This document shows, one piece after another, positions 12,174 to 32,664 of a DNA stretch of 64,000 nt. Where the stretch lies: contig OZ219866.1 in NCBI GenBank assembly GCA_964291675.2, positions 1,600,001 through 1,664,000 of the forward strand, in the 5' to 3' direction. Source of the DNA: Alphaproteobacteria bacterium. Lineage in GTDB: Bacteria; Pseudomonadota; Alphaproteobacteria; MPNO01. The notes below the pieces were generated by a model. The model did no database searches and was not told the origin of the DNA. It was given only the letters and a program-made list of their open reading frames with translations. Position 1 is the stretch's first letter; each line of letters opens with the position of its first letter. A program made the translations under genes and the position numbers.

Positions 12174-12316
12174 GGCCAGACCTCTCTCCGGATGTTGCGA
12201 GGGACGCGCCCCGGTCCCGGCCGACGCCCGGCCTCCCGCCGGCGCAGCGACGGCGGGCGATGTGCGAAGCGCGAGCCCCGCCGCCCGGCCGGGGAGGACT
12301 CCGGGCCGGCTGCATG

Positions 12317-12362
12317 AAGAAAGGGGCCGGAGCCGCGCAGGGAGAAACGCGGCTCCGGCCCC
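12317..12362 (-). terminator. Rho-independent terminator after ssb
   Basis: 15-bp stem GGGGCCGGAGCCGCG/CGCGGCTCCGGCCCC followed by TTTCTT on the minus strand. Confidence 0.75.
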
Positions 12363-12388
12363 ACTGGGCGCGGGAGGGAGAAGGCCCG

Positions 12389-12832
12389 CTAGAAGGGTAT
12401 CTCGGCACCCGTCTGGGACGGCTCGGCGGCGGGCGCGGCGGCCTCACCGGTCGACGCCGGGGCGCCGTTGCCGTTGGCCGGCTTGTCGAGGAATTGCACC
12501 CTGCCGCCGGGAACCAGCAGGATCTCGGTCGAGAAGCGGTCCGAGTCCTCGCCGTCCTTGCGCCAGCGCCGGGTCTGCAGCTTGCCCGCGACGTAGACGA
12601 GGCGGCCCTTCTTCGCGTGCTTCTCCAGCATGTCGATGAGACCGTTCTGGAAGGTCACGACGCGGTGCCACTCGGTCCGGTCGATGCGATCGCCCCCAGC
12701 GTTCTTGTCCAGATAGCTCTCGTCGGTCGCCACCGACATGTTGGCCACGCGCCCGCCGGACGCCAGATGGTTCACGGTCACATCGTCGCCCAGGCGGCCG
12801 ATGATCTGCGCGGAGTTGAGTCCAAACGCCAT
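12389..12832 (-). CDS. ssb: Single-stranded DNA-binding protein
   Basis: LNSAQIIGRLG, RTEWHRVV, KGRLVYVAGKLQTRRW, C-terminal EIPF. Confidence 0.96.
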   Translation of the reverse strand: MAFGLNSAQIIGRLGDDVTVNHLASGGRVANMSVATDESYLDKNAGGDRIDRTEWHRVVTFQNGLIDMLEKHAKKGRLVYVAGKLQTRRWRKDGEDSDRFSTEILLVPGGRVQFLDKPANGNGAPASTGEAAAPAAEPSQTGAEIPF

Positions 12833-14716: not shown

Positions 14717-14985
14717 ATGAGAGCGCTCTTGGCGGCCCTGGTATTGGGCCTCGTCGCGGCGACGCATGCGCTCGCGGCCGAGAAGCTGCGTATCGCCACG
14801 ACCGGAGACTATCCGCCGTTCAACCATGTCTACGCTGCCGGCGAGATCGCGGGCTTCGACATCGCGCTCGCGCTCTGCGCACAGATCGGTGCCGAGTGCG
14901 AGATCGTGCTGGAGAAATGGGAGCGGCTGATCCCGGAGTTGCGCACCGGCAGCTTCGACGCCATCGCCGCCAGCATGCCGATCCC
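14717..14985 (+). pseudogene. Truncated amino-acid ABC substrate-binding protein (family 3)
   Basis: Signal peptide plus LRIATTGDYPPF...GFDIALALC...WERLIPELRTGSFDAIAASM; ends at about one third of normal length. Confidence 0.85.
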
Positions 14986-14989
14986 GTCC

Positions 14990-15068
14990 GAAGCCCGTAT
15001 GCGATGAACAGCATCAGGATCGCCGGATCGCGCTTGTCGATGCCCCCGTCGCCCGTAACAGACGCCAC
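14990..15068 (-). pseudogene. Tyrosine recombinase box I relic
   Basis: KRDPAILMLFIAYGLR matches the RDxAILxLxxxYGLR motif. Confidence 0.6.
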
Positions 15069-15656
15069 CAGCCCACGACATCCTCGCGCGGCAGCCCCTT
15101 GCTGTGTGATGCGGGAGGCCGGGGGCGCGCTCCGCGCCGCTGCCCGGCTGCCCCCTCCCGGCCACGCCCCGGCTCACCGTTGCGCGCGGGCGGAGGGCCG
15201 GATGACCGGTCGCGCCTCCTGGCCGGAGATCCGCGGGGGACATGTCGCCCCACCTCGCACGCGGGCACGCTACAGGCTCACGCACGGTTGACCAAGAATT
15301 AAACCCAATTCCGCCGTGGAATCGTTGCCTTTGGTCCAACCGGCGGGAGCACCGGATCGACGATGACACCGTATAGGAAGAGTTCGATTGCCTGGCGGAA
15401 GTCGTCGTCCGGTTCCTTGATCTCAAGGTTCTTCTTCCTGGAGCAGTCCGGCCCCGGAATCATGACGCTATGCTCTGGCCGGGGGAGGATCGGGCTCCAT
15501 CGAGTGTTGGATGAGTACGGGCGACGTGGCAGATTTCTATTCGGACGGGTAGCTATATACCCGAGCCCATTCCGCTTCGTTGCCTGATCGCCCACGGTCT
15601 GCCGCCAAAACGTCCCGGACATGCGTATTCACGCAGGAAGGCATGCGCTTAATGAA

Positions 15657-18600: not shown

Positions 18601-19502
18601 AGCAGTTCAACGGACTCGCGTGGCAACAACCCCCTGGCGCGTTGACCGATGTGCATCTTCACGACCTGTTCCTTGAGTTACTGCAGAAACCAGGCGGAGC
18701 GCCGGTGATCATCACCGGACTGGGCATGCGCATTAATGCTTTGAAGGACGATGAATTCAGCTTCGGCCCAAGGCTAAAGCGCATTGGTTTGCTAGCCTCG
18801 GCTGCTGTATTTCGGAATGCGCCACACCGTTACGGCCGTTCTGACGACCACCATCTCTCGCGCGTCCTCGACTATTGTCTCAATGAAGCGCAGTTTCCGC
18901 GGGAGACCATGCAGGTCGTCGACGCCTTTATCGCCCGGGCGAAAATCACCTATGGCAACATGGGCGGTCTTCACAGAGCTACTTCTGTTATCGCGGAAAG
19001 GGCTCCGCTTCGTTTTCTGGATGGCGTCTTCCTGGACCCGGAGCTCGAGCCCTATCAGAGCCGTGAGCTGTTCACCGAACGACACCATCGGCCTACTGCC
19101 CTAGCCGGTGTCAGCACTGCGGCGCTAATGGAGTGGTGCGGACAAGGCGAGTTCCAGGCTCGGCTAACCATGCTCTCGTGGGCGATTCATCCGTTTGAGA
19201 GAGAGGAGCAGGGCGATAGCGTTACGTTCTCCGAACAGGCGTATGCCATTATCGATTCGACTCAAGACCCAGCCGCCGTTCTCGGAAACTTTGCGGACTC
19301 CGTTCGGCCGAGCGGTTGGTCGGGAAGCCTTGCCGACATCATCGCAAGACGCCGCCGCCCCTTCGACCTGCTGTTGGGACACGAACGAACGGATATCCGA
19401 TGCCAAGCCGAAAAGCTCGTAACTCGGATCAAGGACGAAGAGCGTCGGGAGCGGGAACGCGAGAAGGCACAAGATCAAGCGCGCGACCAACGATTTGAGT
19501 AA
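15657..19502 (+). CDS. Restriction-endonuclease-like domain + STAND P-loop NTPase + long helical C-terminus (Avs/NLR-like)
   Basis: N-terminal PDGGLD...YQVK (Mrr-like PD..QxK), Walker A GLSGVGKS, Walker B ILVLDNC, FSGGNVRL; about 1280 aa. Confidence 0.8.
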   Translation: MFEITKDQLCQLSDVHLRELVARLCEAELRAAGAPVSAVKWAGAHTAPDGGLDVECRVDEQDFRGDFVPRPRTGYQVKKSKMPPAKIAREMSPKGRLRPMFADLAASNGCYVIVSLGDDPAGDAATRRQKAIREQIAKVPNPGNLQTGFYGRAELANWLRQHPGVQLWVRDILGMPLDGWKPFGRWTNVPPSDNDELICRAGVSIVLPGEHTEKLDILQGIGKIRDLVGTSEKALRIVGLSGVGKSRIVQALFEDSVGDRPLHRSLAIYADLGTAPVPSPRQMLARLKAESRSAILVLDNCPVDTHNLLASEASAAPDVRLITIEYDIRDDKPEITTVIRIDAEGTEIVEALLPRRYPRLGQVNSRRIAEFSGGNVRLSLALADAVGLEENLSSFSNTQLFDRLFHQRDAPDTNLLTAAQTLALVYSYSIGTDEGGVDELATLARLVGQTRLELHRATQSLLERQLAQKRGDWRAILPPALSNHLAAKALDNIPTDDIRVTFENLPNWRLLKSFAKRLGYLHDHDVALRIVRSWLSPGGLLHAVESLDDDRMQLFSSISPVAPSLTLETIEARARLPEYERLVVETGHRARTIALLLCAIAYDAALFERCVNLLVPLAVATSDDSHPQSDVPGRLYDLFALYLSGTEAELDTRERTVRRFLFGSHGTQRRAGLGMLEAALKSGYWASLAATFEFGARPRSLGYFPQTQVERERWYLQFIGIAREAATHADTELSDSARELLAGEFRELWQIAAVRLALKDAAAAINDHRSWPAGWRAIRSIKFFDYRDVDGQSVPDGIELLDELDVLLRPTRLSDEVRTYVCGEGHRHFSLLDEFDLEDDTSSKESHRRAASRAQDLGLAVCNEPEVLDEISGHLFTSETVFVMDFGEGLATACGDPRTLWDQLVGYLELAGDQTTHCLVLHGFLLGVFKRDEALARTILDDTASNRVLRRFIVGLHLSVPISPDTIGIFLRALEFDDTPLEQFNGLAWQQPPGALTDVHLHDLFLELLQKPGGAPVIITGLGMRINALKDDEFSFGPRLKRIGLLASAAVFRNAPHRYGRSDDHHLSRVLDYCLNEAQFPRETMQVVDAFIARAKITYGNMGGLHRATSVIAERAPLRFLDGVFLDPELEPYQSRELFTERHHRPTALAGVSTAALMEWCGQGEFQARLTMLSWAIHPFEREEQGDSVTFSEQAYAIIDSTQDPAAVLGNFADSVRPSGWSGSLADIIARRRRPFDLLLGHERTDIRCQAEKLVTRIKDEERREREREKAQDQARDQRFE

Positions 19503-19756
19503 CGCTCACAATTGCGCACTCAACCTCCTCTCCACCTGGACCAGGCACGAACCTTGCCTTCGGCACGGGCGAAGTTAAGAACCTAGTCCATCGTCTTGTA
19601 CCACGCCTGTGCTACCGCGGCGACATGCACCGATGGCTTGACAGAATCGCCGTCGCCATCCGGTCGCGCGCTTTCAAACGCAATGGTCACGCTTCCCGTG
19701 ATCGTTATCCGCGTTCTGACCTACGCGGCGCCGATGAGGCTCGATAAAGGCAGAAT

Positions 19757-21085
19757 GTGACACACATGCCGATGCTGAGAGATGCAAGGATCGAAAAGGT
19801 GCAGCGGCTTCTGACCGCGTACAAAAAGACCCGGGAACTGCTCGAGGGCGAGCCGGTCACACGGGAGCTTCATCCCGGCACCGACATCGCACGCAACTGG
19901 GCGGTGATCACCGCCGCCTACAGCGGCGCCGAGCAAACTCTGAAGTACCTCCTGGCCGAGGAGAACGGCCTTACCATCCCTGAACTGATCGATTTTGCCG
20001 TTCCGGATGACTTCGATGCGAATGAACACGATGCCAGGACGTACCCTTACCGTACACATAACCTGGGCGCGTTGTTCTCGAAGCTCGAAAGGTCGACGCA
20101 GGACATCGTACGAGACTTCTACCGGCGATATCGCTCCCTCCATTCATACATCGTCATCGGCAGTGCGGACGACTTCCTGAATCGTGTCTCCGGACGCCAG
20201 GGCACCGGGTATGCACGTTGGCGATACACCCTGATCGAAGACAGGCCGCCTCCGAAGAACAGCCCGGAAGCTCTCGTCGCCATCTGGGGGGTGTGCGTCC
20301 GGATCGCGGAGGAAAGACTTTGGGAGAGGCGGCGCGTGCGAATGCCAGACAAGGAGTTGGCGCAGACCTTGTGCCACCGCCTAGAGGCGCTGCTGTTACG
20401 CGTGTCCGTCGATCGACAGAACGACGGTGAACCGTTTCAGGATATTTCCGGCGAGATGAGGGACTGGTTGTGGAGAGGAGGCCACCCCCTCAATGCATTC
20501 GCCGAGGTCCTGTGGCACTTCGCCCGGTACGGCTTCCATGGCGAGGAAGACGTTTCCGAATGGCTCTCCGACGGGCTGTCCCGATGGGTGAACGACGTTG
20601 TCGCGATGCCGAGCGCTTCGGCACAGACCTCGCTCCGGGCTTTCCTCACACGTGCCCAGGGCCTCACGCCCGATGGGCGAAGCATTCGGTGGAACCCGTC
20701 CCGCGACCGCTTCGAAGCCGTCCGGTGGTCCCTCGAACAACGCTTCAGCGACACCCTGCCTCCACGGGCAACCGTTATCGGCGACCCTGCCGGCCACCAG
20801 ACACCACTCGCCACGCTGTGGGCGGCTGCCAGGGACAGCGGTTACCGAGTCCTTGAGAATCGAGCCTTCAAGGGTCCCGCCGGGGAGGACATCTGGTTCC
20901 GCACGCTCGAGGTACAGGCAGAGGACGCCGGGACGGCCCTGCCGGTCCTCTCGATTTGGCAACAGCGCGACTCCGGCAGTGACCTCTTCCACATGGTCGC
21001 GGAACGCGCTCCGGAGGAGGTGAACCAGCCCTTGCGCCGCTGGATGGAGTTGGCCCGCAGGGTCGGGGAGATGAGATCGGGATGA
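19757..21085 (+). CDS. Hypothetical protein with N-terminal HEPN-like domain
   Basis: EQTLKYLL...RTHNLGALF...YARWRY pattern typical of HEPN; C-terminal half not recognised. Confidence 0.6.
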   Translation: MTHMPMLRDARIEKVQRLLTAYKKTRELLEGEPVTRELHPGTDIARNWAVITAAYSGAEQTLKYLLAEENGLTIPELIDFAVPDDFDANEHDARTYPYRTHNLGALFSKLERSTQDIVRDFYRRYRSLHSYIVIGSADDFLNRVSGRQGTGYARWRYTLIEDRPPPKNSPEALVAIWGVCVRIAEERLWERRRVRMPDKELAQTLCHRLEALLLRVSVDRQNDGEPFQDISGEMRDWLWRGGHPLNAFAEVLWHFARYGFHGEEDVSEWLSDGLSRWVNDVVAMPSASAQTSLRAFLTRAQGLTPDGRSIRWNPSRDRFEAVRWSLEQRFSDTLPPRATVIGDPAGHQTPLATLWAAARDSGYRVLENRAFKGPAGEDIWFRTLEVQAEDAGTALPVLSIWQQRDSGSDLFHMVAERAPEEVNQPLRRWMELARRVGEMRSG

Positions 21086-21403
21086 CTCTCGCTTCTCGGG
21101 ACCAGACCTGTTCGGATATCGGCCATCGACGAGGCGGGGCGCGGATTCTTGCTTCGTCACTTCATCTCCACTCTGCCCGCGAAACGGCGGTGTCTTGTGA
21201 GGGCCCATCCGCAAGTCGTCAGGTCTAATGCGAGAGCCGCCGCGAACCAGCAATGTCAGGCAACTTGGCCTGTCTTCCCGCTCCACGCAGGTTCTCGCGG
21301 TTCAATCGACATCATGGGGAGGCGCCGAACGGGTAGGTGGCCGGCCGCGGAGAAATTGCCGACAAGGAAAATCGAACTCCGAACCCTGACGTCGGCTTCT
21401 GAA

Positions 21404-21997
21404 CTACTCGCATTCAGCAGGGGCGCGCCATCGGGCGGCCTTCAGTTCAGACTGCGCTGGACGCGCCAAGTCGACCGCGATCCGCAGGTCGGCCACGCCG
21501 CGCGGCGCGACGATTTCTTTCAGCCGCCCCAGTCCGATGCTCTTCTGGCCTTCAGGAAGGTCGCGCTCCGCCACCGCGAAGAAGAGCCACTGCCCGAGAT
21601 CTGTGTGGTCGGCACGGTCATCGTCACGCCCATGCCAGGCGAAGACGTAGATGTCCGCTTGCCGGGCTGGGGAACCGATCCACACGCCCTCTCGTGTCCA
21701 GAACCCGCTGCGGGGCGCGATGTCGAAGGCCGGGGTGCGTCGCCGCGGTGTCGGCCCCCTGTCCCATGTTTGCCGCGCCGCGGCCTGCTTGATCTCCAGC
21801 CGAGCACCGGAAGGCGTGTGCTCACAATCCCAGGCCGCCCAATCCCAACCGTCCATCCAGGTCAGGCGCCAATCGTCCCCGAGCGCCGACGCGATCATGC
21901 ATTCGACATAGTCGCCGCGATAGACGTTGTTCATGATCGGCCCGTCGTAGCGATGCCTGAGCATCGTCAGGATGTCTTCGTGCCGGGGTTCCTTCAC
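21404..21997 (-). CDS. PD-(D/E)xK restriction-endonuclease-like protein
   Basis: RGDYVE...WD...RLEIKQAA, ADIYVF motifs. Confidence 0.7.
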   Translation of the reverse strand: MKEPRHEDILTMLRHRYDGPIMNNVYRGDYVECMIASALGDDWRLTWMDGWDWAAWDCEHTPSGARLEIKQAAARQTWDRGPTPRRRTPAFDIAPRSGFWTREGVWIGSPARQADIYVFAWHGRDDDRADHTDLGQWLFFAVAERDLPEGQKSIGLGRLKEIVAPRGVADLRIAVDLARPAQSELKAARWRAPAECE

Positions 21998-22041
21998 GGC
22001 GTCGCTCCAATGCTGGAAGTCACATGGACGAAGCTACTCGC

Positions 22042-23433
22042 TCAGCTGTTTGCCAACACGTCGTCGACGATCGGAATTGCCCGCCCCGCCGCCTCGACGA
22101 ATTGACGGCTGAAATATTCAGTCAGGTCGCCCGGGTCTTGCGCTTCCTTGTGCAAGCGGGCGAGCAGGGGCCTCCAGTCCCCGTGCTCTTCCAGATAACG
22201 GTACCAAGGCCAGCTTCGGGAATCCGTTCTACCCCGCAAAGCCGTATCAGCGCCCAGGCGTTCGCGCAGCCGTTCCCTCAAATTTTCCTCGGCGTCGACG
22301 TCGCCTGTTCCGGAATCGAGGCCGACGCCGACAGACCAATCATTGGCATCGCGTTCGTGCCTGAGACTGATGACGGGAACCGCACCGCCAGCTTCGGACC
22401 ACGCTTTCCTGAAGGCCCAAACGCCGTTCTTCGGCCCGCCGTGATTGCTGAAGCCGCAACCGGTCCGCAGGTCCTCGATCGAACCGAGGTCGCTGGCGAT
22501 CCGATCGCGCAGCACTTCGAGAAAGCGCTTCACGACTTCATTCCTCGTTTCCGGCCAGGCCTCGACAACGGCGATAGCCGTCAGCACGTTGTCGTCGTTG
22601 GCGAGGATGAAATCCCTCACTTCCTTCCGTTCGATCGTTGTCGTCACGATTCCTCCGAATGTCTTGTGGCAGAACGTCTCGACCTCACCCAGGAACCAGC
22701 GCAGGCGTTCCGCTTCGCATATCTGCCGGCACTCCCGCAGCCAGTCGCTCAATGAGAAGGACAGCCGAAACGGGAAACTTCCTTCATACTCGCCGGTCTC
22801 GTCGCGTGGACAGAACGACATGATCGCCAGCCCATCCTTGCAGGCGGCTCTGGGAAGACCCCGTTCCGAGGGCGCGCCTCCATGTCCGCTCAGATATATC
22901 AGCAGAAAACGGTCGCCATAGTGTCGTTTCAGGAACGCGAGGTAGTCCGCGATCTGACCCTCGCCGTCCGCCGCATATGGCTTATTCTCGAAGGCTATAC
23001 AGGCTGGCTCCCGGCCCCGTGAGCGAAGCTCGACGGAGATGTCCAGGCGCCCACCGCCGTCGGTGCTTCGTTCCCGCAGAACGTGAACATCGAAATCGTC
23101 GAACCGAACGGTTTGACCCGCTGGCCAAAGATCCGGTCCGACCAAGTCTCCGAACCTCGCGAGGAAACGCGTTCCCTGACCGTGGGTGCCGTTAGGATCG
23201 AGCAGGTACCCGATAATTCGCGATAGCCCGAGTTCGTCCGTGCGCAGATAGTCAAGCGCGTTGAAACCGCGGGCCAGCAGTCGGTCCAACTCGCGTTCCA
23301 CCGCCCGCGCGCCTTCCATCCGCGCGCCCAGCGCCGTGAAAAACCGCCCGCAACGGTCTCGATCCGACTGTCTGATCGAGGCCAGGCGCTCCGAAAGCGG
23401 CGCGATGCGCGACAGATGGCGAAGTGTCGTCAA
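22042..23433 (-). CDS. PD-(D/E)XK nuclease family protein (PDDEXK_4-like)
   Basis: ELGLSRIIGYLLDPNGTHGQG, RE...GRLDI...IAFENK...DGEGQIADY; start uncertain. Confidence 0.85.
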   Translation of the reverse strand: MTTLRHLSRIAPLSERLASIRQSDRDRCGRFFTALGARMEGARAVERELDRLLARGFNALDYLRTDELGLSRIIGYLLDPNGTHGQGTRFLARFGDLVGPDLWPAGQTVRFDDFDVHVLRERSTDGGGRLDISVELRSRGREPACIAFENKPYAADGEGQIADYLAFLKRHYGDRFLLIYLSGHGGAPSERGLPRAACKDGLAIMSFCPRDETGEYEGSFPFRLSFSLSDWLRECRQICEAERLRWFLGEVETFCHKTFGGIVTTTIERKEVRDFILANDDNVLTAIAVVEAWPETRNEVVKRFLEVLRDRIASDLGSIEDLRTGCGFSNHGGPKNGVWAFRKAWSEAGGAVPVISLRHERDANDWSVGVGLDSGTGDVDAEENLRERLRERLGADTALRGRTDSRSWPWYRYLEEHGDWRPLLARLHKEAQDPGDLTEYFSRQFVEAAGRAIPIVDDVLANS

Positions 23434-23439
23434 CGGTCT

Positions 23440-23886
23440 TCACTCGGCCTGCCGCGTTCTCGAACGATGGCTTCCGCTGTCCCTCTTGAAGTCTTCCCGC
23501 GACCCTAGTGGCTCGTCGACGTGCCGTGCCCACGGTTTGGACGCGCGCGGGTCGACCAAATGGATATTCTTCCGATCGATCGACGAGCGCACGGGCTTTG
23601 CACTCGCGTACGATGCCGGTTTCGCTTTCCGGGAAAGCCGATGCGTCTCCTTCTTGCCCGGCTGCTCCGCTCTGGATTCCTGTTTCCCCGACGCGCCTTT
23701 CTGCCGCGACCGTTTGAACTCCATATATGCGATTTCATGGGGAGTTACGGCCTGCCTCCGACCTCGGCAAACCTCGACAAATTGCCTTTGCAATTCGGTC
23801 GTCGGCGTCCGCTCGCCCTGATCGAGCTGGCGGTAAAACTCATAATGCCGTCCGATCAGCGCAACTTGATGGGAGGTCAACGCCAT
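23440..23886 (-). CDS. DUF413 (MaoP/YifE-like) domain protein with basic tail
   Basis: LIGRHYEFYRQLDQGERTPTTELQRQFVEVCRGRRQAVTPHEIAYMEF resembles the DUF413 core. Confidence 0.75.
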   Translation of the reverse strand: MALTSHQVALIGRHYEFYRQLDQGERTPTTELQRQFVEVCRGRRQAVTPHEIAYMEFKRSRQKGASGKQESRAEQPGKKETHRLSRKAKPASYASAKPVRSSIDRKNIHLVDPRASKPWARHVDEPLGSREDFKRDSGSHRSRTRQAE

Positions 23887-24244
23887 CCATGCCGATCCTT
23901 GTCCGTACTCCAGGCGTGATGCGAGTGGCTTGCGCAGCCAGCGGTCGGAGTTGCTCGGGACTTGGATCGTCGCCCATCGGAGCAATGGATTCAATGGCCA
24001 GTTGTGCGTGGGCGCCGCGGTCAGGTGTCGGTGTCGGCGGTGTTCTTCGGGGCCGTGGCGCGGTTCGATGACGGCGGGCGGCGTGGGAGTGCGTGATGGC
24101 CCGCGCGCAACCGATTGTCGCCACCAACTGTCCGTCATGCCGGCCCGCGGTCTCGCCCCGTTGATGGTCGGAGCCCGAACCGGATATGTTCGTAGCGGCT
24201 TCGCGGGGCACGCCGCCCCGAGGATCAGGGGTCCGAGGTGTGGT

Positions 24245-24490
24245 GAGCCGGCCCGCCAGCATTCGGTACAGGGTGGCGTCAGGACAGGCCGAGGCGAAAT
24301 GGATGCGGGCGGCCTTCTCCACGACGCGGGCGCCGATGTTGAGCAGGCTCTTCCGAAGAGTGGTGAACTCCGACCAGCCGAGTGGCATGCGGCGCGGCAC
24401 CGCGACGCGGAACGCGAGCATCAGCCAGTAGGCGGCGGTGTGGAGCACCAGGCGGAACTGGTTGGCGTGCGGGCTCTGGCACTGGACCGC
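24245..24490 (-). pseudogene. IS1380-family transposase C-terminal relic
   Basis: CQSPHANQFRLVLHTAAYWLM...EFTTLRKSLLNIGARVVE...RIHFASACPD. Confidence 0.85.
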
Positions 24491-24594
24491 GGACAATCCG
24501 GTCAACGGGCTCCACCCGCGCGGCATTTGCTTGGCGAACGGCCCGTCGAGCGCGGCGCCGATTTTCGGTCGCTTCGAGGCGGCAGAGACGACAC

Positions 24595-25995
24595 TCAGCG
24601 CAGGATAAGGTTGAATTCAACCCGGCGGTTGCGCCTGAACGCGGCAATCGTGCTGCGAAGATCGATCGGTTGGTATTCGGCGAAGCCGGTGGCAGCTAGA
24701 CGGTTGGCTGGAACCCCCCGGTCAATCAAGTACTTGACTACCGCGACCGCTTTGCCGGTCGACAGCTCCCAGTTTGACGGATAAGCAGGGGTTGAGATCG
24801 GTACTCGGTCGGTGTGGCCGTCGACCCGGATCAGCCAGTCGATGTCGGCCGGAATTCTCACGGAAATCTCTTTGATCGTCTTCACCATCTTGTCGATCTG
24901 GGCGCGTCCCCCTGGCTGGAGCGTTGCCCGGCCCGAGGGGAAGAGCACCTCCGACTGGAAGACGAAGCGGTCGCCGACGATGCGTACATCGCTGCGGTTG
25001 CCGAGCGACTGCCTGAGCCGGACGAGAAGTTTGGCACGATAATTCGCAAGTTCCTCGACGTGTCTGGCAGGCGTCGCGAGGAACTGCTGCAAAGGGTTGA
25101 CGAACTGGATACCTTTTTCCTTCGCCTCGCGCTCCACAGCGTCGAGCGCTACTTCGAGGCGCGCGAGCTTCTTGCGGAGAACGGCAATTTGGTTATCGCG
25201 GAGACGCACTCGCTCTCGAGACCCATTGTATAGCGCGCGCAATTCCGCAAATCGCGATTGTGGTGTTTCGACCGAACCGCTCAATTTGGTCACCCACTCT
25301 ACGGGTATCGCGAAGGAAAACCCTCCGGCGCCTGCGCCCGAGATTTTCAACGTCGTGATCCCGATCAACATTCCCTGCTGATCGAAGAGTCCACCACCGG
25401 AGGATCCTGGCGATACCGTAACGTCCGACTGGATGAGCGGGGCGGCTTCCGTTCCGCCGACTCCGCGCAACTGCGAAACGATGCCGCGAGACAAGGACAG
25501 TTCCAGCCCATAAGGGGCTCCTATGGCATAGACCTCATCGCCAATCGACGTATCGCGGGCATTCCCTAGAGGCACTGGTACCGCCGCGGGCGCATCTGAT
25601 AGCCCCGCCACGAACAAAATGCAAAGATCGCGATCTGCTTCTTGCGCGGTCAGCTTGGCTTTCATTCGGTAGGATTCCCGCGCACGCGCATTCGGCGCCT
25701 GTCGTACCGCAATCAGTTGCGCACCCGAAACGACATGGCAGTTCGTCGCCACTGTATTCTCGCTGACGACAACACCGCTACCTTGGGCCAATTCCTTGCC
25801 ATGCGTATCCATGGCAATTACGACCACAATACCTCTGGACACTTTATCGAAGACTTGCTTCGCCGATTTGCCGTGAGTGGTTGACGGCATACCCGCTCCG
25901 GCCGCGACGAATATGGAGATGAGCAGAAATACTGTGTGCCGGTACCTTTCCATCGCGCGCGAATAGATCGGCCTTAAAGAACGGAAATCAATCAT
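24595..25995 (-). CDS. Trypsin-like serine protease fused to OmpA/MotB-like peptidoglycan-binding domain
   Basis: Signal/TM segment; GSG, TNCHVV, DLCIL, PGSSGG triad motifs; C-terminal VDGHTD, NWELS, NRRVEF; start overlaps upstream stop (ATGATTGA). Confidence 0.88.
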   Translation of the reverse strand: MIDFRSLRPIYSRAMERYRHTVFLLISIFVAAGAGMPSTTHGKSAKQVFDKVSRGIVVVIAMDTHGKELAQGSGVVVSENTVATNCHVVSGAQLIAVRQAPNARARESYRMKAKLTAQEADRDLCILFVAGLSDAPAAVPVPLGNARDTSIGDEVYAIGAPYGLELSLSRGIVSQLRGVGGTEAAPLIQSDVTVSPGSSGGGLFDQQGMLIGITTLKISGAGAGGFSFAIPVEWVTKLSGSVETPQSRFAELRALYNGSRERVRLRDNQIAVLRKKLARLEVALDAVEREAKEKGIQFVNPLQQFLATPARHVEELANYRAKLLVRLRQSLGNRSDVRIVGDRFVFQSEVLFPSGRATLQPGGRAQIDKMVKTIKEISVRIPADIDWLIRVDGHTDRVPISTPAYPSNWELSTGKAVAVVKYLIDRGVPANRLAATGFAEYQPIDLRSTIAAFRRNRRVEFNLILR

Positions 25996-26242
25996 GAAGA
26001 CCTCTGGAGGCTTCAAGGAGGCGATCAAGAAGGTCATTTTCCGCCACTCGAGTAAGCGTGGCGTATTCGTCTCCGTCCTCAACCGGCCGGGCAGTGATCG
26101 ATCTGAAGGCACTAATCATCAAATCGATGGTGCCGGGCTGCGATCTTTCGACTGACATAATGGTGCCTACAACAAGCCCACTAAGTGCGGTGATCCTGGT
26201 GTCCAGTTGTAAATATAGCTCCTTAAGTTCGTCATCGGTCAT
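25988..26242 (-). CDS. Hypothetical protein (84 aa)
   Basis: Acidic helical ORF coupled to the protease gene. Confidence 0.55.
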   Translation of the reverse strand: MTDDELKELYLQLDTRITALSGLVVGTIMSVERSQPGTIDLMISAFRSITARPVEDGDEYATLTRVAENDLLDRLLEASRGLHD

Positions 26243-26554
26243 CGAGGCAGACCCCTTGTCGATTCCAATAGAGTCTTGCATCTGGCCCGGCGGGCGTCAA
26301 GCTGAACGAAGTTTGCGAAGGCAAATGCATGCAGAGGCATGAACCACTTTGTATGATTGCGTCTGAAGATCAAATGAGCGAGTACGCTTTCCCAGTATGA
26401 TACGCTGCGGGACCGTCAATCAGGGTTTACTTGGAGCGGCAACCCGGATTTCACACCAGTTCAATTTGCCCGGTTATTTGGTCTGGCTGCCGGTCATGGC
26501 GGTGTCGTCTGGATGCGCGCGAGGGGTAGCGCTGGCGCCTGAGGCGCGGTGTGG

Positions 26555-26606
26555 TGACCGCATGTGGCGGGACGGCACCCAGTTCCGCGTCACCCTGTTG
26601 GGGTGA
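26555..26606 (+). pseudogene. IS110-family transposase extreme C-terminal relic
   Basis: RMWRDGTQF resembles the HRMWxDGTxF end of alphaproteobacterial IS110 transposases; very short. Confidence 0.45.
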
Positions 26607-26825
26607 TTTCGGTCTGACGAATCCTGTGTGCCGCCTCTGTGAGGCGCGCTTCGGATCGCGCGGCAAGCTTGAACACATACAGACCCTGTGCCTCTTGGAG
26701 GACTTCCCAGAGCGCCACATGGTCACGTCCTGCCGAGCCCATCGAGTTTGCGGGATCGTGATTCCGTGGTGACAATCGACGCGGTTTATCCGCTTTAACG
26801 CCGCCGGGAATTGTCTACCAGATCG

Positions 26826-26918
26826 ATGTCGGATCATCTGTCACCCAAGGAGCGCAGCGCGCACATGCGCCGTATTCGCAAGACCGGCACAAAGCCGGAG
26901 ATGCGAGTTCGGCGCGCC
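26826..26918 (+). pseudogene. vsr: Very-short-patch repair endonuclease N-terminal relic
   Basis: Hand translation MSDHLSPKERSAHMRRIRKTGTKPEMRVRRA matches the Vsr N-terminus (RSxxMxxIRxxxTKPE). Confidence 0.8.
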
Positions 26919-27166
26919 ACGCCGACGCCGACGCGATCCTGCGCGACCACCGCACCTTCGCCAGCGATCCGCTCCCGGGCACGCTAACCCGCCGCCAGCA
27001 GGCCATGCTGCCGCCGCCGGACGAGGTCACCATGCTGCTTCTCGAGCCGCCCGACCACACGCGGCTGCGGGCCCAGTGAACAAGGCGTTCACGTCCCGGG
27101 GGGTGGGCGCCCTGGAGGCCCGCATCCGCGCGATCGCGGCCGAAATCCTGGACGCCGTCGATGATC
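26918..27166 (+). pseudogene. Cytochrome P450 internal fragment (frameshifted)
   Basis: HADADAILRDHRTF...MLLLEPPDHTRLRA / VNKAFT...LEARIRAIAAEILD, with a frameshift near 27075. Confidence 0.8.
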
Positions 27167-27350
27167 GCCAAGACGAAGAGGCCGCTCGGGCGGTCGGTGG
27201 AGAAGCCGCTGCCCGAACCTGTCGACAACTCCCCCGAGAACGTGATGCGGGCGATCCTCGCGACGCCGCCGAAGCGCGACGACGAGTGGCGGTACATGCG
27301 GAAAGCCGACGCCTAGCGGCCCGCTTGGTCACTTCTGTATGTAGGCCCCA
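27167..27350 (+). pseudogene. Short ORF remnant, possibly the end of an IS1595-like element
   Basis: KRPLGRSVEKPLPEPVDNSPENVMRAILATPPKRDDEWRY* followed by an abrupt GC drop at about 27350; IS assignment is from recall only. Confidence 0.35.
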
Positions 27351-27395
27351 TTCCATGCTATACTCTATTCATATGGAGAACACTAAATAGCAAGC

Positions 27396-27725
27396 ATGAA
27401 GCGCAATACCGCCATCGTTGTCGCAGTCTTTATGTCGGTGATTCTTATAATTTTAACTGCGGTATTTTCGCCCGTGTTCCGTGAACACTTGTCGAACATT
27501 GGGAACGATAATTGGAAACGGTCTGTCGCTAGTCTAATGTTAGATCCAGATTCTACCAAATTTAGGAACACTAGGAAAAGCACACTTGGTTATTGTGGTG
27601 AAATAAACAGCAAGAACAAATTTGGAGGATACGTGGGATTCAAGCGATTTCATGCTTTCAAGGACAAGTTGGGTAAGTGGTCTATAACGCTAGACACATC
27701 GATTGTGGATATCTTCTGCCGATAG
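27396..27725 (+). CDS. Small membrane-anchored hypothetical protein (DPDS...CGEINSKNxFGGYVG family)
   Basis: N-terminal TM helix; motif common in phage/island cargo; very low GC. Confidence 0.75.
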   Translation: MKRNTAIVVAVFMSVILIILTAVFSPVFREHLSNIGNDNWKRSVASLMLDPDSTKFRNTRKSTLGYCGEINSKNKFGGYVGFKRFHAFKDKLGKWSITLDTSIVDIFCR

Positions 27726-27904
27726 GGCATTACTATGCGACTGTGAGAGTCGAAGGCACATATTCATGTTAAGACATTAAGGTGCAAGCACAGAATGGGC
27801 ATGAGGCCAAGAAAATCATTGAAATGCACCTCGGTGGAAAAGTGAAGAGTTGGCTGCGTTCCCCGACGCCGGGATCAAAGCCACCCAGATGGTTTCGTGG
27901 TTGA
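27722..27904 (+). pseudogene. Small interrupted ORF
   Basis: HYYATVRVEGTYSC*DIKVQAQNGHEAKKIIEMHLGGKVKSW...; internal TAA and ATA at the presumed start. Confidence 0.35.
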
Positions 27905-28009
27905 TTATACTCGCAGCGAGCCGTGCGAACGCCGACGCCTAACGGCTTCCCAATGCCTCAATAGTTTCTTGCACCCTTCTGTGACCAATCTACGCGGAGC
28001 CAGAACACG

Positions 28010-28795
28010 ATGAGCAACATCATCATCCACCACCCCACGTACTGGCCGCTTGAACAAATCCAATTCGATCCGTCCAATCCGGAACGATTGCCCGAAAAAA
28101 CTTATCAATACACATCATATGAACCTAAGCCGGGAGACAAGGAACGCAAGCGAGTGAGATATGTTGTCCGCTCCAAATGGCACAAAGCCAAACAAGAGCT
28201 GACTATAGAATACCGGGCCGAAGACCAGCAATACCTGCCGGAAGGCTGGCCTCCAGCAGAGGATGTCGAGTTTTGGGGTTGGGGAGTCCATATTCTCACC
28301 ATTGAACCCGGCACGAAGTCCGGCCCTTCCAGTTGGAAGCATGAATTGTATCCCGAACCAGAACCTGGACATGGATGGACTTTAGAACGACTCTCCGGTG
28401 GCAAAAAGAGAGACTGCAAGTCGGCGAAACAGATAAGGAGAGAGCAACAGGGACCATTTAGAGATCAACTTCTGGAAATGGATGGGTGCTGCGCTTTGAC
28501 GAAAGAGACTTGCGGGACTGCCTTGGAAGCCGCTCACATAATTCCTGCTTACCAAGGAGGGCCAGAGTATCCAGAAAACGGAATGCTGCTTCGCGCGGAC
28601 ATTCACCGGCTCTTCGATGCTGGAAAATTTCAGATTTGCCCAGAGACCGGCAAGGTGCTGTTAGACGCAGGCTTCGATTACCCATTCACTCGGCAGGAAG
28701 AAGCATTCACTCTGCAAGAAGCGCAAGTACCGCGAGATGTACTGGAGCGGATACGGACCGCGCTTCAGCATCGGGGCAGGTTACCTGCACAATGA
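28010..28795 (+). CDS. HNH endonuclease (HNH_2-type) with unknown N-terminal domain
   Basis: QGPFRDQLL...CALT...LEAAHIIP...NGMLLRADIHRLFD. Confidence 0.88.
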   Translation: MSNIIIHHPTYWPLEQIQFDPSNPERLPEKTYQYTSYEPKPGDKERKRVRYVVRSKWHKAKQELTIEYRAEDQQYLPEGWPPAEDVEFWGWGVHILTIEPGTKSGPSSWKHELYPEPEPGHGWTLERLSGGKKRDCKSAKQIRREQQGPFRDQLLEMDGCCALTKETCGTALEAAHIIPAYQGGPEYPENGMLLRADIHRLFDAGKFQICPETGKVLLDAGFDYPFTRQEEAFTLQEAQVPRDVLERIRTALQHRGRLPAQ

Positions 28796-28920: not shown

Positions 28921-29250
28921 TCATGCGTGCAGCGCGCCCGCGCGCCGTTCGGCGGCGGTCCTCTCCCGGCGCGCCTGCGCAAGCTCGTAAGCAGCCTGCA
29001 TCCGCATCCAGTGCTCGGCGGTTCCCCAGCCGACATCCTCAAGCGCCAGCGCCATGTTCGCCGACACGCCCGCCTTGCCGTTCAGCAGCCGAGACAGCGT
29101 CCCGCGCTCGCAGCCGAGCCGCGCCGCCGTCCCGGTCACGTTCCAGCCCACATCGTTCATGCTTTCGCGGATGAGTTCGCCCAGGTGCGGCGGGTTGCGC
29201 ATCGGGCCGACGCGATCGCTCGCAATGTCGTTCATGGTCAGTGCTCCCAT
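28921..29250 (-). CDS. higA: HigA family antitoxin
   Basis: MRNPPHLGELIRE, HTH, GVSANMALAL, WMRMQAAYEL. Confidence 0.93.
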   Translation of the reverse strand: MGALTMNDIASDRVGPMRNPPHLGELIRESMNDVGWNVTGTAARLGCERGTLSRLLNGKAGVSANMALALEDVGWGTAEHWMRMQAAYELAQARRERTAAERRAGALHA

Positions 29251-29254
29251 TCGG

Positions 29255-29527
29255 TCAGTGGTAGTCGATCAGGTCCACGTCCACGGCCTCGCCGTCCTCG
29301 AAGCGGAACACCACGCGCCAGTTGCCCGAGACGCGAACGCTCCACTGTCCCCCGCGGTCGCCCTTCAGGGGATGCAGCCGGAAGCCGGGCGCGTCGGCGC
29401 TGCCCAGATGCGTCGCCTCTTGCAGACGGAACAGGATAAGCCGAAGCCGTGGCGCGAGGCCGGCGGGCAGCCGCGCCGCGTCGACGCGCTCGTGCAGCGC
29501 CCGCAGTGACTTATGCCTGATCTCCAT
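29255..29527 (-). CDS. higB: HigB (RelE/ParE) toxin
   Basis: IRHKSLR...PGFRLHPLKGDRGGQWSVRVSGNWRVVFRF...DYH; toxin precedes antitoxin. Confidence 0.93.
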   Translation of the reverse strand: MEIRHKSLRALHERVDAARLPAGLAPRLRLILFRLQEATHLGSADAPGFRLHPLKGDRGGQWSVRVSGNWRVVFRFEDGEAVDVDLIDYH

Positions 29528-30008: not shown

Positions 30009-30614
30009 TCATTCGTATTCCTCGCCGCCCACACCCGGCCGCGCCGGCGTCGGCATGCGCCCGTCGGTCTGACGCGGCGGCCGCGCGATCTCCGGCGCGA
30101 GGTCGGCGAGCTCGATGAACGCGTCGGCCTGGCGGCGCAGCTCGTCCGCCGCCATCGGCGGCGAGGAGCGCAGCGTCGAGACCACGCTCACCCGTACTCC
30201 CTCGCGCTGAACCGCCTCGACCAGGCGCCGGAAGTCGCCGTCGCCCGAGAACAGCACCATATGGTCCAGCTTCGGCGCCATCTCCATCGCGTCGATCGCG
30301 AGCTCGACATCCATGTCGCCCTTGACCGTGCGGTTCCCGTAGGCGTCGGTGAACTCCTTGGCCCGCTTGGTAATGAGCGTGTAGCCGTTGTAGTCGAGCC
30401 AGTCGACCAGCGGACGGAGCGGCGAGTATTCCACGTCGTCGAACAGCGCGGTGTAGTAACAGGCGCGCACCAGCCGGCCCTCGGCCGCGAAACGGTCCAG
30501 CAGGCGCTTGAAGTCGATGCTGAAGCCGAGCGCGCGCGATGCTGAAAAGAGATTGGCGCCGTCGATGAACAGCGTGGTCCGTTCGTCGGGACGCTCGGTC
30601 ATGGGACGGAACAC
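30009..30614 (-). CDS. NYN domain (LabA/DUF88) protein
   Basis: FIDGAN, KGDMDVELAID, SGDGDF, LRRQADAF. Confidence 0.93.
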   Translation of the reverse strand: MFRPMTERPDERTTLFIDGANLFSASRALGFSIDFKRLLDRFAAEGRLVRACYYTALFDDVEYSPLRPLVDWLDYNGYTLITKRAKEFTDAYGNRTVKGDMDVELAIDAMEMAPKLDHMVLFSGDGDFRRLVEAVQREGVRVSVVSTLRSSPPMAADELRRQADAFIELADLAPEIARPPRQTDGRMPTPARPGVGGEEYE

Positions 30615-30659: not shown

Positions 30660-31970
30660 CTAGCCGGTGCGCCCGCCCGACGCCAGCGGCGCCCTCGATA
30701 CTCCAGGCTGCTGCGAATCCGGTCCCGGGGCCGCCGCGCCGCCGTCGATCGTCTCATCGATGCGATCTGCGATGCGCTGGGCTGCGTCGCGGAGCTGGTG
30801 CGCGGTCCAGTCCGACGCGTAGCCCTCGGTCACGTCCCTGGGCCTCGCATGGTTGACCAGTCGCTTGGTGAGACTCGTCGGCAGCATCAGCTCCCGGTCC
30901 GCCACCGTGATGAAGCAGTTGCGAAGCGCATGGAACCAGAACTTCGCGCCGCCCGCCTCGCCGATCCGCGCATTGTGCTGCTGCAGGCTCGAGAGCCGGC
31001 CCGACGTGGCGGTCTCCGACGGGAACACCCAGACCCGGCTGTTCTCCGGGAAGGTCCCGCGCTCGGCCATGCGGCGTTCGAGGATCGCCGCCACCTGCCG
31101 CACGATGGGGATCTCCAGCGGCTCGCCGGTCTTGGTCTCCTCGACCGTCAGCGTCATCGCATCGAAATCCACCTTGTCCCAGCGCAGTTCCAGAACCTCG
31201 GAATGGCGCATGCCGGTGTAGAGCCCGAGCCGCAGCGCATCGCGCGCCACCGGGCTGCGAACCCCCTTCTCGATGCCCCGGTGCCAGCGCGGCAGGACCT
31301 CGGCCGGGGGCTGGATGCGGCGACGGCGCTGGCGGTGCAGCCGCCCGCCCGCCGCGCGCCACTGCGCCACCGGGTTGTGCAGACCCTGGACGTCGACGCA
31401 TTGCCGCCGGTACAGCGCACCCAGCATGATCAGCGCCGAGTTGGCCCCCACCCAGCCGATCTCCGACGTCAGCCGGTTGAAGCACTGCTCGACGTCCTTG
31501 CGGGAGATCGTGTTGAGCGACCGGTCGAGCCAGGGCGCGAGATCCATGTACACCGTCCTGCGGTAGACCTCCACCGTCCGCGGCTTCCGCTCCGGCCCGG
31601 CGGCGAGGAAGTCCTCGAAGGCCTCGCGCAGCGTGGGCGTCGACCGCGACCGGGTGCGTCCCTCGGCCGGGTCTTCCCCGGCGGCGACCTTGCCCAGCGT
31701 CTCCCGGGCGATGAGTCTTGCCTCCTCCGCCGACACCCGCCCGTGCCGGCCGATGACCAGCCGCCGGTTGGCGGCCCGCCTGCCGCCGCCCGAGGCACGG
31801 TAGTTCACCAGGTAGGACCGCACCCCCGAGGGCTGGACCCTGACCCCGAACCCGGTCAGCCTGTCGTCCCAGGCGATGAAGGGCTTGTCGGCCGGCTTCA
31901 GGGCGTCGACGCTCCGTTTGTTCAATGTGAGCTTTATCTGGGCGACACGCTTTCCGCTCTGTGTTGACAT
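30660..31970 (-). CDS. Tyrosine integrase with N-terminal arm-DNA-binding domain
   Basis: WDDRLTGFGVRV...IGRHG arm domain; catalytic GMR, TKT, HALR, NH and Y motifs intact. Confidence 0.95.
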   Translation of the reverse strand: MSTQSGKRVAQIKLTLNKRSVDALKPADKPFIAWDDRLTGFGVRVQPSGVRSYLVNYRASGGGRRAANRRLVIGRHGRVSAEEARLIARETLGKVAAGEDPAEGRTRSRSTPTLREAFEDFLAAGPERKPRTVEVYRRTVYMDLAPWLDRSLNTISRKDVEQCFNRLTSEIGWVGANSALIMLGALYRRQCVDVQGLHNPVAQWRAAGGRLHRQRRRRIQPPAEVLPRWHRGIEKGVRSPVARDALRLGLYTGMRHSEVLELRWDKVDFDAMTLTVEETKTGEPLEIPIVRQVAAILERRMAERGTFPENSRVWVFPSETATSGRLSSLQQHNARIGEAGGAKFWFHALRNCFITVADRELMLPTSLTKRLVNHARPRDVTEGYASDWTAHQLRDAAQRIADRIDETIDGGAAAPGPDSQQPGVSRAPLASGGRTG

Positions 31971-31990
31971 GCCGGCACCCTCTTCGAAAT

Positions 31991-32160
31991 CCCTCAATAT
32001 ATCATCTATACCCTCAACACATGAAAGTCAACTCCAGGCCAGCCGGGTCTCGTTCAGTCCACGGGAGGGCAATCCGTTATCGTATCAAGTCAATGGAATA
32101 ACGAAAGAAATGTTCTCTCAAGACCGCTCCGGTCCGTTCTAGACCGCTCCTGACCACAAC
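31991..32160. repeat. Candidate att arm region
   Basis: CCCTCAA twice (31991, 32011); IHF-like TATCAAGTCAATG near 32083; 10-bp-period repeats AGACCGCTCC/GGTCCGTTCT/AGACCGCTCC/TGACCACAAC (32121-32160). Confidence 0.55.
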
Positions 32161-32182
32161 CGCCGAATCCGGAATCATTTAA

Positions 32183-32198
32183 TGTTTCACGTGAAACA
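32183..32198. promoter_or_regulatory. parS: parS centromere site
   Basis: Perfect 16-bp palindrome TGTTTCACGTGAAACA, the canonical chromosomal parS consensus. Confidence 0.9.
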
Positions 32199-32307
32199 AT
32201 GGTCAACCTTGTTGACCTATGTAACGCGTGAAGAAATTGCCGGAAACGGTACGGACCGCGCGAGAAACCGCGCTTCCGCCCGGATTCGCCTGTGCGTCCC
32301 CGGGGGA

Positions 32308-32664
32308 CTACCCGCCGTCGATGTCGACGATGCGGTGCGGCGAGGCGTGGATGCCGAGGGTCTTGAGCGGGACGTCGCCGGTCACGCGGAAGCCGTGGCG
32401 CTGGCCGGGCGGCAGGATCAGGGTGACGCCCGGGCGCAGCGCGACGGTCTCCTCGCCCTCGGCCCAGGCCTCGCCGGTGCCTTCGAGCACGGTGATCGCC
32501 TCGACATAGGGGTGCGAATGCGCCGGCGTCTCGTAGCCCGGCGGCGAGGTCTGGATGCCCGAGCGCAGCGGGGTCGAGCCCGCATCGTCGCCGACCAGCG
32601 TGCAATAGGTCGCCCCGCCCGGGAACCGCTCGCTCTCGAGCTTGTCGTGTTCGACCACCTTCAT
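32308..32664 (-). CDS. Cupin domain protein
   Basis: HSHPYVE...PPGQRHGF; ATGA overlap with marR stop. Confidence 0.9.
   Translation of the reverse strand: MKVVEHDKLESERFPGGATYCTLVGDDAGSTPLRSGIQTSPPGYETPAHSHPYVEAITVLEGTGEAWAEGEETVALRPGVTLILPPGQRHGFRVTGDVPLKTLGIHASPHRIVDIDGG

Follow-up and report, generated by a model that had tools for sequence, protein, structure and literature searches.

Why should an intact tyrosine integrase gene lie 212 bp from a perfect copy of parS, the centromere site of the bacterial chromosome? The question is raised by a 64-kb stretch of contig OZ219866.1 (hereafter, the window, to which all positions without a contig prefix refer), which corresponds to C2:1600001-1664000 of the alphaproteobacterial genome assembly denoted G000, from a sponge-associated bacterium. 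A first-pass annotation of the window had proposed that the element carrying this integrase integrates at parS. A repeat at the left end of the element, empty sites and the association of integrase homologs with parS bear this out, and we consider it very probable that the window contains the right attachment junction (attR) of a 63.3-kb integrative, probably mobilizable island that was inserted into consensus parS by its own arm-type tyrosine integrase, via site-specific recombination.

Junctions of the 63.3-kb island

The features of the junction in the window are the following:

1-32179, no strand: right 32.2 kb of the 63.3-kb island, delimited by flank synteny with relatives; heterogeneous GC content
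30660-31970, minus strand: intact tyrosine integrase of 436 amino acids with an N-terminal arm-DNA-binding domain; ATG at 31970
31971-32179, no strand: P arm, island DNA from the integrase start to the core; 209 bp of lower GC content with candidate arm-type sites
32180-32190, no strand: core identity block TAATGTTTCAC, attR copy; the same 11 bp are found at the left junction, C2:1568855-1568865
32183-32198, no strand: perfect consensus parS; its right half is host DNA, its left half not assignable to host or island
32180-32237, no strand: host parS repeat module consisting of TAA, parS, AT, GGTCAAC-CTT-GTTGACC (32201-32217), TA and a degenerate second parS (32220-32235), from BLAST, repeat D3 and inverted pair I1
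32308-32664, minus strand: conserved cupin gene, the first of the host on the right side of the island (Pfam Cupin_2, 3.6e-17; present in relatives)

The extent of the insertion, denoted island 1, follows from comparison with relatives. The flank to the right of the integrase gene (cupin, MarR, luciferase-like monooxygenase and other genes) is kept at 82-96% identity within the genus, and in five relatives (G008, G001, G005, G004 and G003), a small conserved open reading frame (ORF) without a Pfam match, which we label geneX, lies together with the genes preceding it immediately beside the cupin gene, on its left. This left host flank corresponds to C2:1560657-1568852 of G000, and the cupin flank starts after window position 32300. 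Because the left flank ends at C2:1568852 in G000 and is directly beside the cupin gene in the relatives, the insertion spans C2:1568866-1632179, beginning 31,134 bases to the left of the window start. Within the window, the GC content of the island varies between 0.53 and 0.76, compared to about 0.70 in the host DNA to the right.

The two ends of island 1 share a short direct repeat. The left junction (attL) reads GACCGCCTAATGTTTCACTTTAATGAAG and the right junction GGAATCATTTAATGTTTCACGTGAAACAATGG; the 11-bp block common to both, TAATGTTTCAC, consists of TAA and the left half of parS, and is limited by C versus T on its left and by T versus G on its right. The first-pass annotation had suggested searching the left end for a parS half-site, and this is what C2:1568855, 31 kb outside the window, contains, preceded by TAA. 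On the island side of the left junction, the block is followed by TTTAATG, not by the second half of parS. When the host halves of the two junctions are combined, they yield a normal module; the combined island halves yield a half-parS only. As the block is identical at both ends, the 63.3-kb island lies inside parS, with a parS rebuilt intact beside the integrase gene. A BLAST comparison of 31951-32330 with the rest of the genome places the boundary at the same point: similarity to other modules begins exactly at 32180, where the matches of the window module to at least 20 other copies start, and the 229 bp to the left of 32180 match only the region at C2:3218 kb, beside a second integrase gene, where the P-arm stretch finds its sole counterpart (69% identity) and not at any other parS module.

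The empty counterpart that the first-pass annotation had hoped to reconstruct from island-free relatives is clean for a second island of G000, described below, and only partial for island 1. Among seven relatives compared at the island-1 locus, G009 (right flank 96% identical) has an intact module beside the cupin gene and a left flank without a match in G000; in G005, the two flanks enclose a parS with one mismatch; G010 has a perfect parS only several kb away; and four have no parS within 8 kb. G000 is a metagenome-assembled genome (93.7% complete, with 6.7% estimated contamination). An exact public contig of 298 nt bridges the P arm and parS at 31910-32207 (run X23, which may be the source sample), and past 32220 many contigs of public runs diverge, which is what a repeat would produce. 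Most public runs containing the stretch carry the label of a sponge metagenome.

The attachment region itself largely conforms to its first description, which listed an intact arm-type integrase, a nearby perfect parS followed by a second palindrome, two copies of CCCTCAA, host genes about 110 bp after parS, and no tRNA or tmRNA gene. The translated integrase contains the Arm-DNA-bind_3 domain (Pfam PF13356, formerly DUF4102; 3.1e-15, residues 25-115) and the Phage_integrase domain (PF00589, 5.3e-15), and a motif search (pattern R..H-x-x-R..H..Y) finds R255, H347, R350, H374 and Y384 all present; the catalytic roles assigned here to R255, H347/R350, H374 and Y384 are putative, being read by us from the motif pattern and not from a structural alignment. 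Among arm-type (P4-like) island integrases, the enzyme is unexceptional. The perfect parS, TGTTTCACGTGAAACA, has no second match in the 64-kb window when as many as three mismatches are tolerated, where shuffled sequences lead one to expect 0.05 matches. The palindrome GGTCAAC-CTT-GTTGACC belongs to the host repeat, not to the element, and the cupin gene ends 110 bp beyond parS. No tRNA or tmRNA gene is present in the window, and no Rfam family matches the attachment site, the lone match there (E 0.81) being noise.

Within the P arm, CCCTCAA occurs at 31991-31997 and 32011-32017, 20 bp apart (repeat family D4). The four repeats of 10-bp period that the first reading had noted are real (GACC, GTCC, GACC and GACC at 32122, 32132, 32142 and 32152), and a pair of 18-nt direct repeats (32118-32135 and 32138-32155, 83% alike; D2) describes them better. 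The IHF-like site stands only as a one-mismatch approximation at about 32082-32094; the exact consensus, which we take to be WATCAANNNNTTR, has no match in the attachment region. TCAACAC is found at 32014-32020 and again across the integrase start codon, which suggests autoregulation; the start codon is also overlapped by one arm of an 8-bp inverted pair, TGTGTTGA/TCAACACA, upstream of the gene. The border with the core reads GGAATC-ATTTAAT-GTTTCAC (32171-32190).

Recurrent insertions, the parS module and the integrase clade

The same junctions recur within and beyond G000. Genome-wide, TAATGTTTCAC without the second parS half after it is found at four places in G000, namely, the left junction of island 1, C2:3264361, an orphan site on C1, and one 1-mismatch parS. 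At C2:3264361, the half-site continues with the same TTTAATG as in attL of island 1, and the second island (C2:3217791-3264350, 46.6 kb) has the same two junction types. Its integrase (C2:3217998-3219224) is 91% identical to that of island 1 and adjoins a parS at C2:3217772. The site of this island is empty in G009, where the flanks are contiguous around one intact parS, and the BLAST matches of the two flanks overlap by exactly 11 bases (query 2671-2681).

Half-sites of the attL type, breaking right after TAATGTTTCAC, were also detected in G010, G002 (two), G004 (two) and G006. Three of these pair with an integrase-proximal parS on the same contig, delimiting islands of about 108, 44 and 57 kb. 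Intact modules of G000 provide empty counterparts to three of these islands: the double module C2:432231/432268 to the island on G004:C5 and, at its other parS, to that on G009:C124, so that each of these two islands uses a different parS of the same double module and the two face opposite ways, and the module at C2:1893265 to the island of G010. Altogether, seven insertions were identified at six loci in four genomes, and given this recurrence, an assembly artefact is very unlikely. What the assemblies show directly is the junctions with their direct repeat, the empty sites, the link between the integrase clade and parS, and the conservation of the arms.

Three further observations concern these sites. 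The orphan on C1 (C1:849693-849704, minus strand) consists of TAATGTTTCAC followed by ATTGAATCG, together with the conserved P' arm block; C1 contains no related integrase and no matching attR, and the site is probably a remnant of a third island. In the double module of G000 (C2:432231-432283), the central AT-GGTCAAC..GTTGACC-TA spacer has the opposite orientation to that at attR of the island on G004:C5 (L019), as if it had been flipped by recombination between palindromic parS copies. In G010, a 1-kb stretch between a full parS and an attL half-site was considered as a tandem remnant and rejected, being host-like, GC-rich, coding and absent from G000; it was read by eye, without a domain search, as an alpha/beta-hydrolase.

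The target is one copy of an amplified repeat. G000 contains 24 perfect and four 1-mismatch parS copies, distributed along C2 (218 to 3555 kb) and C1, against a chance expectation of less than 0.001 perfect copies (our own arithmetic, from base composition). Three perfect copies lie in the mnmG-rsmG-parA-parB locus (C2:865.9-870.2 kb), which also encodes a canonical ParB (TIGR00180, 195.8 bits), and this identifies the 16-mer as the real centromere motif of this organism. The first-pass annotation had described parS as usually origin-proximal; the window parS (C2:1632183), however, is one of the 24 dispersed copies, 766 kb from the parAB locus (about 866-870 kb) and not proximal to it or to the origin. 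Most of the 28 perfect and near-perfect sites share one layout, with (C)TAA, parS, AT, GGTCAAC-N3-GTTGACC, TA, and a second or degenerate parS; a few stand alone. The module is dispersed and intergenic, usually 0-20 nt after a stop codon (many copies, by eye), and, being also short and palindromic, it resembles repeats of the repetitive extragenic palindrome (REP) or REP doublet (REPIN) type. A RAYT as the mover of the module was rejected given that no match to this family (Y1 transposase, PF01797) was found in G000.

The expansion of parS extends to the whole genus, with 23-52 perfect copies in each of its 12 genomes, compared to 0-6 in the 19 searched genomes of other genera, except for one with 16; the relatives are recorded as metagenome-assembled Alphaproteobacteria and Rhodospirillales and one Defluviicoccus sp. 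This expansion is a second finding in its own right. Modules of G000 often form inverted pairs, with the parS sides inward, around 2-7 kb (C2:218232/222574, 945337/949400, 1113678/1120331, 1399015/1405359 and 1889120/1893265; C1:337062/339675; by eye), and one such segment, of 4.3 kb, is located near the cupin gene in G010 and 1.4 Mb from the cupin gene in G000, which hints at rearrangement or cassette movement between modules. Another dispersed repeat (...CCACCGAAACTGTTTCACGGCAA...) that contains a parS half-site is present in 12 copies in G000, for example, at C2:1939764, 2213456 and 3000322 and C1:543823.

The link between integrase and parS was surveyed in 30 loci of the genus and in the best 80 of 173 relatives from one genome for each of 185,579 species. 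Within the genus, all seven full-length integrases with at least 81% identity to that of island 1 (four genomes, six loci) have a parS with 0-1 mismatch 205-263 bp upstream of the start; a truncated copy (L043) has no parS nearby. Among the full-length integrases of 56-58% identity, two of 13 are near parS, in both cases a 1-mismatch variant, and none of the six integrases of about 30% identity has parS nearby. In the set of the best 80 of 173 relatives, parS is found next to the full-length integrases of at least 81% identity (5/5, the same places as among the genus loci) and next to none of the 74 integrases of 53-77% identity, within 600 bp and with two mismatches allowed. Even for 52 copies per 5.5 Mb, our own arithmetic puts the probability of a parS in a random 300-bp stretch at about 0.003.

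In the phylogeny of 80 integrases (quick search with IQ-TREE and with Shimodaira-Hasegawa-like approximate likelihood ratio test [SH-aLRT] support only), the seven parS-linked integrases form one clade with support of 100, found only in the genus with the parS expansion, and the two parS-adjacent integrases of about 57% identity form a separate clade (support 99). The parS enrichment for which the first reading had proposed a test is present beside the close homologs; more distant homologs adjoin tRNA 3' fragments, an ssb-like gene at its start, or another long palindromic repeat. The two integrases of the separate clade, L024 (G001:C1:4012311) and L034 (G010:C1:2521717), lie about 200 bp from a 1-mismatch parS, TGTTTCACGTGTAACA, in a module. 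The far ends of their elements were not found: the G000 flank has no match in G001, and the nearby parS sites in G010 are in host DNA.

Other integrases have neighbors of their own. The sister clade of the parS-linked integrases (L059-L064 and L073, 74-75% identity, from other Rhodospirillales metagenome-assembled genomes [MAGs]; G031 and G032) adjoins a different long palindromic repeat starting with TAGAGCCGATCATGG, which is also dispersed (41 and 19 matches in two genomes, one of which has five integrase copies); this integrase lineage seems prone to adopt amplified palindromes as targets. The clade of L025, L026, L033 and L041 directly adjoins an ssb-like gene at its 5' end, possibly a further target of an unusual kind. 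One MAG encodes seven integrase copies on four replicons (L065-L071), each 73% identical to the query and with identical upstream DNA, which we read by eye as an IS5-like transposase, so that this integrase may be carried on, or inserted in, an insertion sequence (IS).

Recombination model and alternative explanations

Comparison of seven attR and 8-10 attL junctions leads to the following model. The host attachment site (attB) would be a parS preceded by TAA within the REP-like parS-palindrome module, and strand exchange must fall within the 11-bp TAATGTTTCAC, so that insertion would leave half a parS at attL and rebuild a complete one at attR, beside the integrase gene. Because parS is rebuilt there, the host would lose no parS, and the number of full sites would be conserved. 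The integrase would bind the arm-type repeats in the P arm of about 210 bp and the conserved pair of TCAACAC motifs about 105-135 bp inside the other end. The P arms of the seven attR junctions share GGAGC-type repeats about 33-63 bp from the core and TCAACAC 144-166 bp from it; in the P' arms, a ATCAACACTAT..CAAC block is present 105-135 bp inside the far end in seven of the ten attL junctions, with one change in the C1 orphan, TATCGACAC. The base before the 11-bp block is the island-side T at all seven attR junctions and C in most host copies, and after the block, the island side reads TTTAAT, TTTAGT, CTTAGA or TTTGAC. These limits would be compatible with a 7-bp overlap, GTTTCAC, flanked in the deduced island site (attP) by T and then TTAA on each side, at equal distance, and in attB by CTAA and TGAA. 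The core geometry first proposed, GAATC-N7-GTTTC, did not hold up: its spacer ATTTAAT (32177-32183) is only partly within the identity block (32180-32190), and as it includes three bases that differ between the junctions, it cannot be the overlap. That the integrase itself catalyzes the exchange, where exactly it would cut, and which bases it would recognize, we infer from the sequences.

Several points weigh against insertion by this integrase into parS. In the source population, we detected neither an attP circle nor an emptied site; what the public runs offer, short Logan contigs only, has no bearing on excision or on an empty site. An excisionase-like protein (AlpA, HTH_17 type) was not found by Pfam search among the 40 small ORFs in the part of the island within the window. 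The left 31 kb of island 1 are full of IS elements, a group II intron and gene fragments, and this copy may no longer be mobile. At all seven attR junctions, a palindrome of the GGTCAAC type, intact or diverged, comes after parS, and with the palindrome beside parS at every occupied site, recognition of parS is not separable from that of the module. Occupation of a parS that stands alone, as at the mnmG-rsmG-parAB locus, was not observed, and the restriction of the clade to one genus, although parS is nearly universal, fits a need for context beyond parS. The binding of ParB to the dispersed parS copies is a prediction, and where the cuts fall within the 11 bp is modelled and not observed. A metagenome scan with a 17-mer from the P-arm/core border added little: among the 80 matches listed, only two, both from low-GC organisms, run on into parS and not one into an island junction, the matches being mostly chance ones in AT-rich DNA.

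Some of these points bear on an alternative that we regard as a serious possibility, if not the likeliest account, namely, that the integrase recognizes the REP-like module (the TAA flank and GGTCAAC-N3-GTTGACC) and not parS as such, so that the identity of the crossover site to parS would be incidental and ParB would have no role. Such recognition would account for the palindrome right after parS at all readable occupied sites and for the restriction of the clade to the single genus with the amplified module, and the sister clade of 74-75% identity, with its own dispersed palindromic repeat (41 and 19 copies), suggests that the lineage adapts to whichever repeat abounds. However, the identity block and the exchange within it are located in parS plus TAA, outside the palindrome; the palindrome varies among occupied sites (GGTCAACC, GGTCAGCA, GGTCAATA and AGTCAGC), whereas the parS half is invariant; and a second, unrelated integrase clade likewise adjoins parS.

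Much less credible, and contradicted by the junctions, is the alternative, already raised in the first-pass annotation, that parS belongs to the element, which would carry it so that the ParB of the host can partition the excised circle. In all seven close homologs, parS is indeed close to the integrase start (212 bp in the window), and integrative elements that exploit partition systems are known, such as SGI1 with IncC plasmids (available part of PMC10954446). Nevertheless, the right half of parS and the DNA beyond it are host sequence, common to at least 20 module copies and to island-free relatives; the island continues with TTTAATG after the half-site at its other junction, so that the joined circle, that is, the deduced attP, would contain only a half-parS; and no ParB-like gene was found in either island of G000. 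Least probable of all, and hardly worth retaining, is that the module is itself mobile and was inserted beside integrases after the arrival of the islands, or that the junction results from an assembly error at a repeat: the presence of a module at orthologous loci does vary from species to species (the seven relatives compared for island 1 include one with a module, G009, and one with a 1-mismatch parS, G005), and the estimated contamination of the metagenome-assembled G000 is 6.7%, but the two junction types recur in seven islands of four genomes, each bracketed by the 11-bp repeat, empty sites hold one intact parS, and the exact public contig bridges the P arm and parS (31910-32207), even if its run may be the source sample.

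Insertion into parS by the island integrase could be extended to a more inclusive reading, which we put forward tentatively and consider rather doubtful as a whole: parS would be the true target for this integrase lineage, with a core that is an essentially universal centromere sequence; the genus would have turned it into a mobile, REP-like landing pad of 23-52 copies; and ParB at the rebuilt parS would gate integrase expression or the choice between integration and excision. If, under this reading, a bare parS suffices, the centromere sites of most bacteria would be open to insertion by the integrase. More narrowly, we speculate that ParB loading at the rebuilt parS, 212 bp from the integrase start, could influence integrase expression.

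Gene content of the islands and comparison with known elements

The genes of island 1 located in the window are listed here, with the low-GC cargo block:

4680-8744, minus strand: MobF-family relaxase/helicase (Pfam TrwC 5.7e-67, AAA_30; NCBIfam NF041492, 210.8 bits, cut-off 100)
11122-12447, minus strand: Toprim/DUF7146 primase-like protein, backbone common to the second island
12389-12832, minus strand: SSB (island 1)
15621-28795, no strand: low-GC cargo block with a 1293-aa ORF without a known domain, PD-(D/E)XK nuclease, trypsin-OmpA protein, HNH endonuclease, transposase fragment and Vsr fragment
28921-29250, minus strand: HigA-like HTH protein, near the integrase
29255-29527, minus strand: HigB-like toxin, near the integrase
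30009-30614, minus strand: NYN-domain protein, adjoining the integrase

Both islands of G000 share the integrase, the Toprim/DUF7146 primase-like protein and the MobF relaxase/helicase, with SSB listed for island 1. The cargo differs: the left 31 kb of island 1 encode IS110, IS4-like, IS3 and Mutator-type transposases and a group II intron reverse transcriptase, along with gene fragments, and island 2 encodes a NACHT NTPase, an MmeI-like methylase and a Calx-beta protein. VirB4 has no family match anywhere in G000 (93.7% complete), and two coupling-protein matches lie outside the islands (C1:239k and C2:85k). The complete type IV secretion system that would define an integrative conjugative element is not found within the islands; the combination of their own relaxase with no mating-pair-formation genes is that of integrative mobilizable elements (IMEs). 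On predicted gene content, the islands are best filed as IMEs or decayed conjugative elements.

Three observations on the island part of the window are recorded separately. The low-GC ORFs at 15621-19502 and 19757-21085 (both plus strand; 1293 and 442 aa) have no Pfam or NCBIfam match and lie beside nuclease and protease genes; they may be defence genes. A fragment (96 aa) of a family-3 solute-binding protein, encoded at 14717-15007 (plus strand) where the backbone of the island gives way to the low-GC cargo, looks like a mark left by insertion or accretion at an earlier time. Also inside the island, 1463-3883 (plus strand) encodes a protein of 806 aa that combines 14 Sel1 repeats with a peptidoglycan-binding domain; eukaryote-like repeat proteins have often been described from sponge symbionts.

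Site-specific islands land in tRNA genes, in a few protein-coding genes, and at dif. Elements of the IMEX group, such as the CTX phage, integrate at dif using the host XerCD, without an integrase of their own. Like these, the islands described here use a conserved non-coding, cis-acting chromosome-maintenance site as a landing place, with no gene disrupted; unlike these, they encode an integrase with arm sites, target parS and not dif, and have tens of target copies available, which places them outside IMEX. IS1397 and ISKpn1 are insertion sequences that target REP palindromes, employ DDE transposases and make target duplications. With these, the islands share dispersed extragenic palindromes as multi-copy insertion sites, but the enzyme is a tyrosine recombinase, the exchange would take place in an 11-bp identity block, and the inserted elements are islands of 44-108 kb.

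The closest resemblance is to elements with P4-type integrases, of which the dusA-specific integrases are an example with Arm-DNA-bind_3 (available part of PMC4482086). The two-domain architecture and the predicted catalytic residues are the same, as is the arrangement, with the integrase gene at the island end by the attachment core, arm repeats between them, and a short direct repeat at both ends. Distant relatives of this integrase in the tree are found at tRNA gene fragments, as usual for the family. The target, however, is neither a tRNA nor a protein-coding gene; it is non-coding, palindromic, present in multiple copies and identical to the centromere site parS, and being palindromic, it allows insertion in either orientation, with several islands per genome. 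The combination of an integrase with a MobF relaxase and a primase and SSB, without a type IV secretion system or coupling protein of their own, resembles that of IMEs as covered in the available part of a review (PMC5704250), from which the islands differ in the integration site. Our full-text literature searches, judged by titles and the starts of abstracts and with subscription literature outside their scope, returned no earlier description of parS as an attachment or landing site. Accordingly, the new feature is the target; the enzyme and the relaxase-bearing island are ordinary.

As parS is conserved in most bacteria, the integrase is a candidate tool for DNA insertion without a pre-placed landing pad, provided that the module context is dispensable. 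For the genus itself, 23-52 dispersed copies of consensus parS are at odds with the usual origin-proximal clustering of these sites and raise the question of how ParABS and SMC loading cope. The insertions link mobile elements with chromosome segregation, as each of them puts an integrase gene and tens of kb of foreign DNA beside a site at which ParB is predicted to bind and load.

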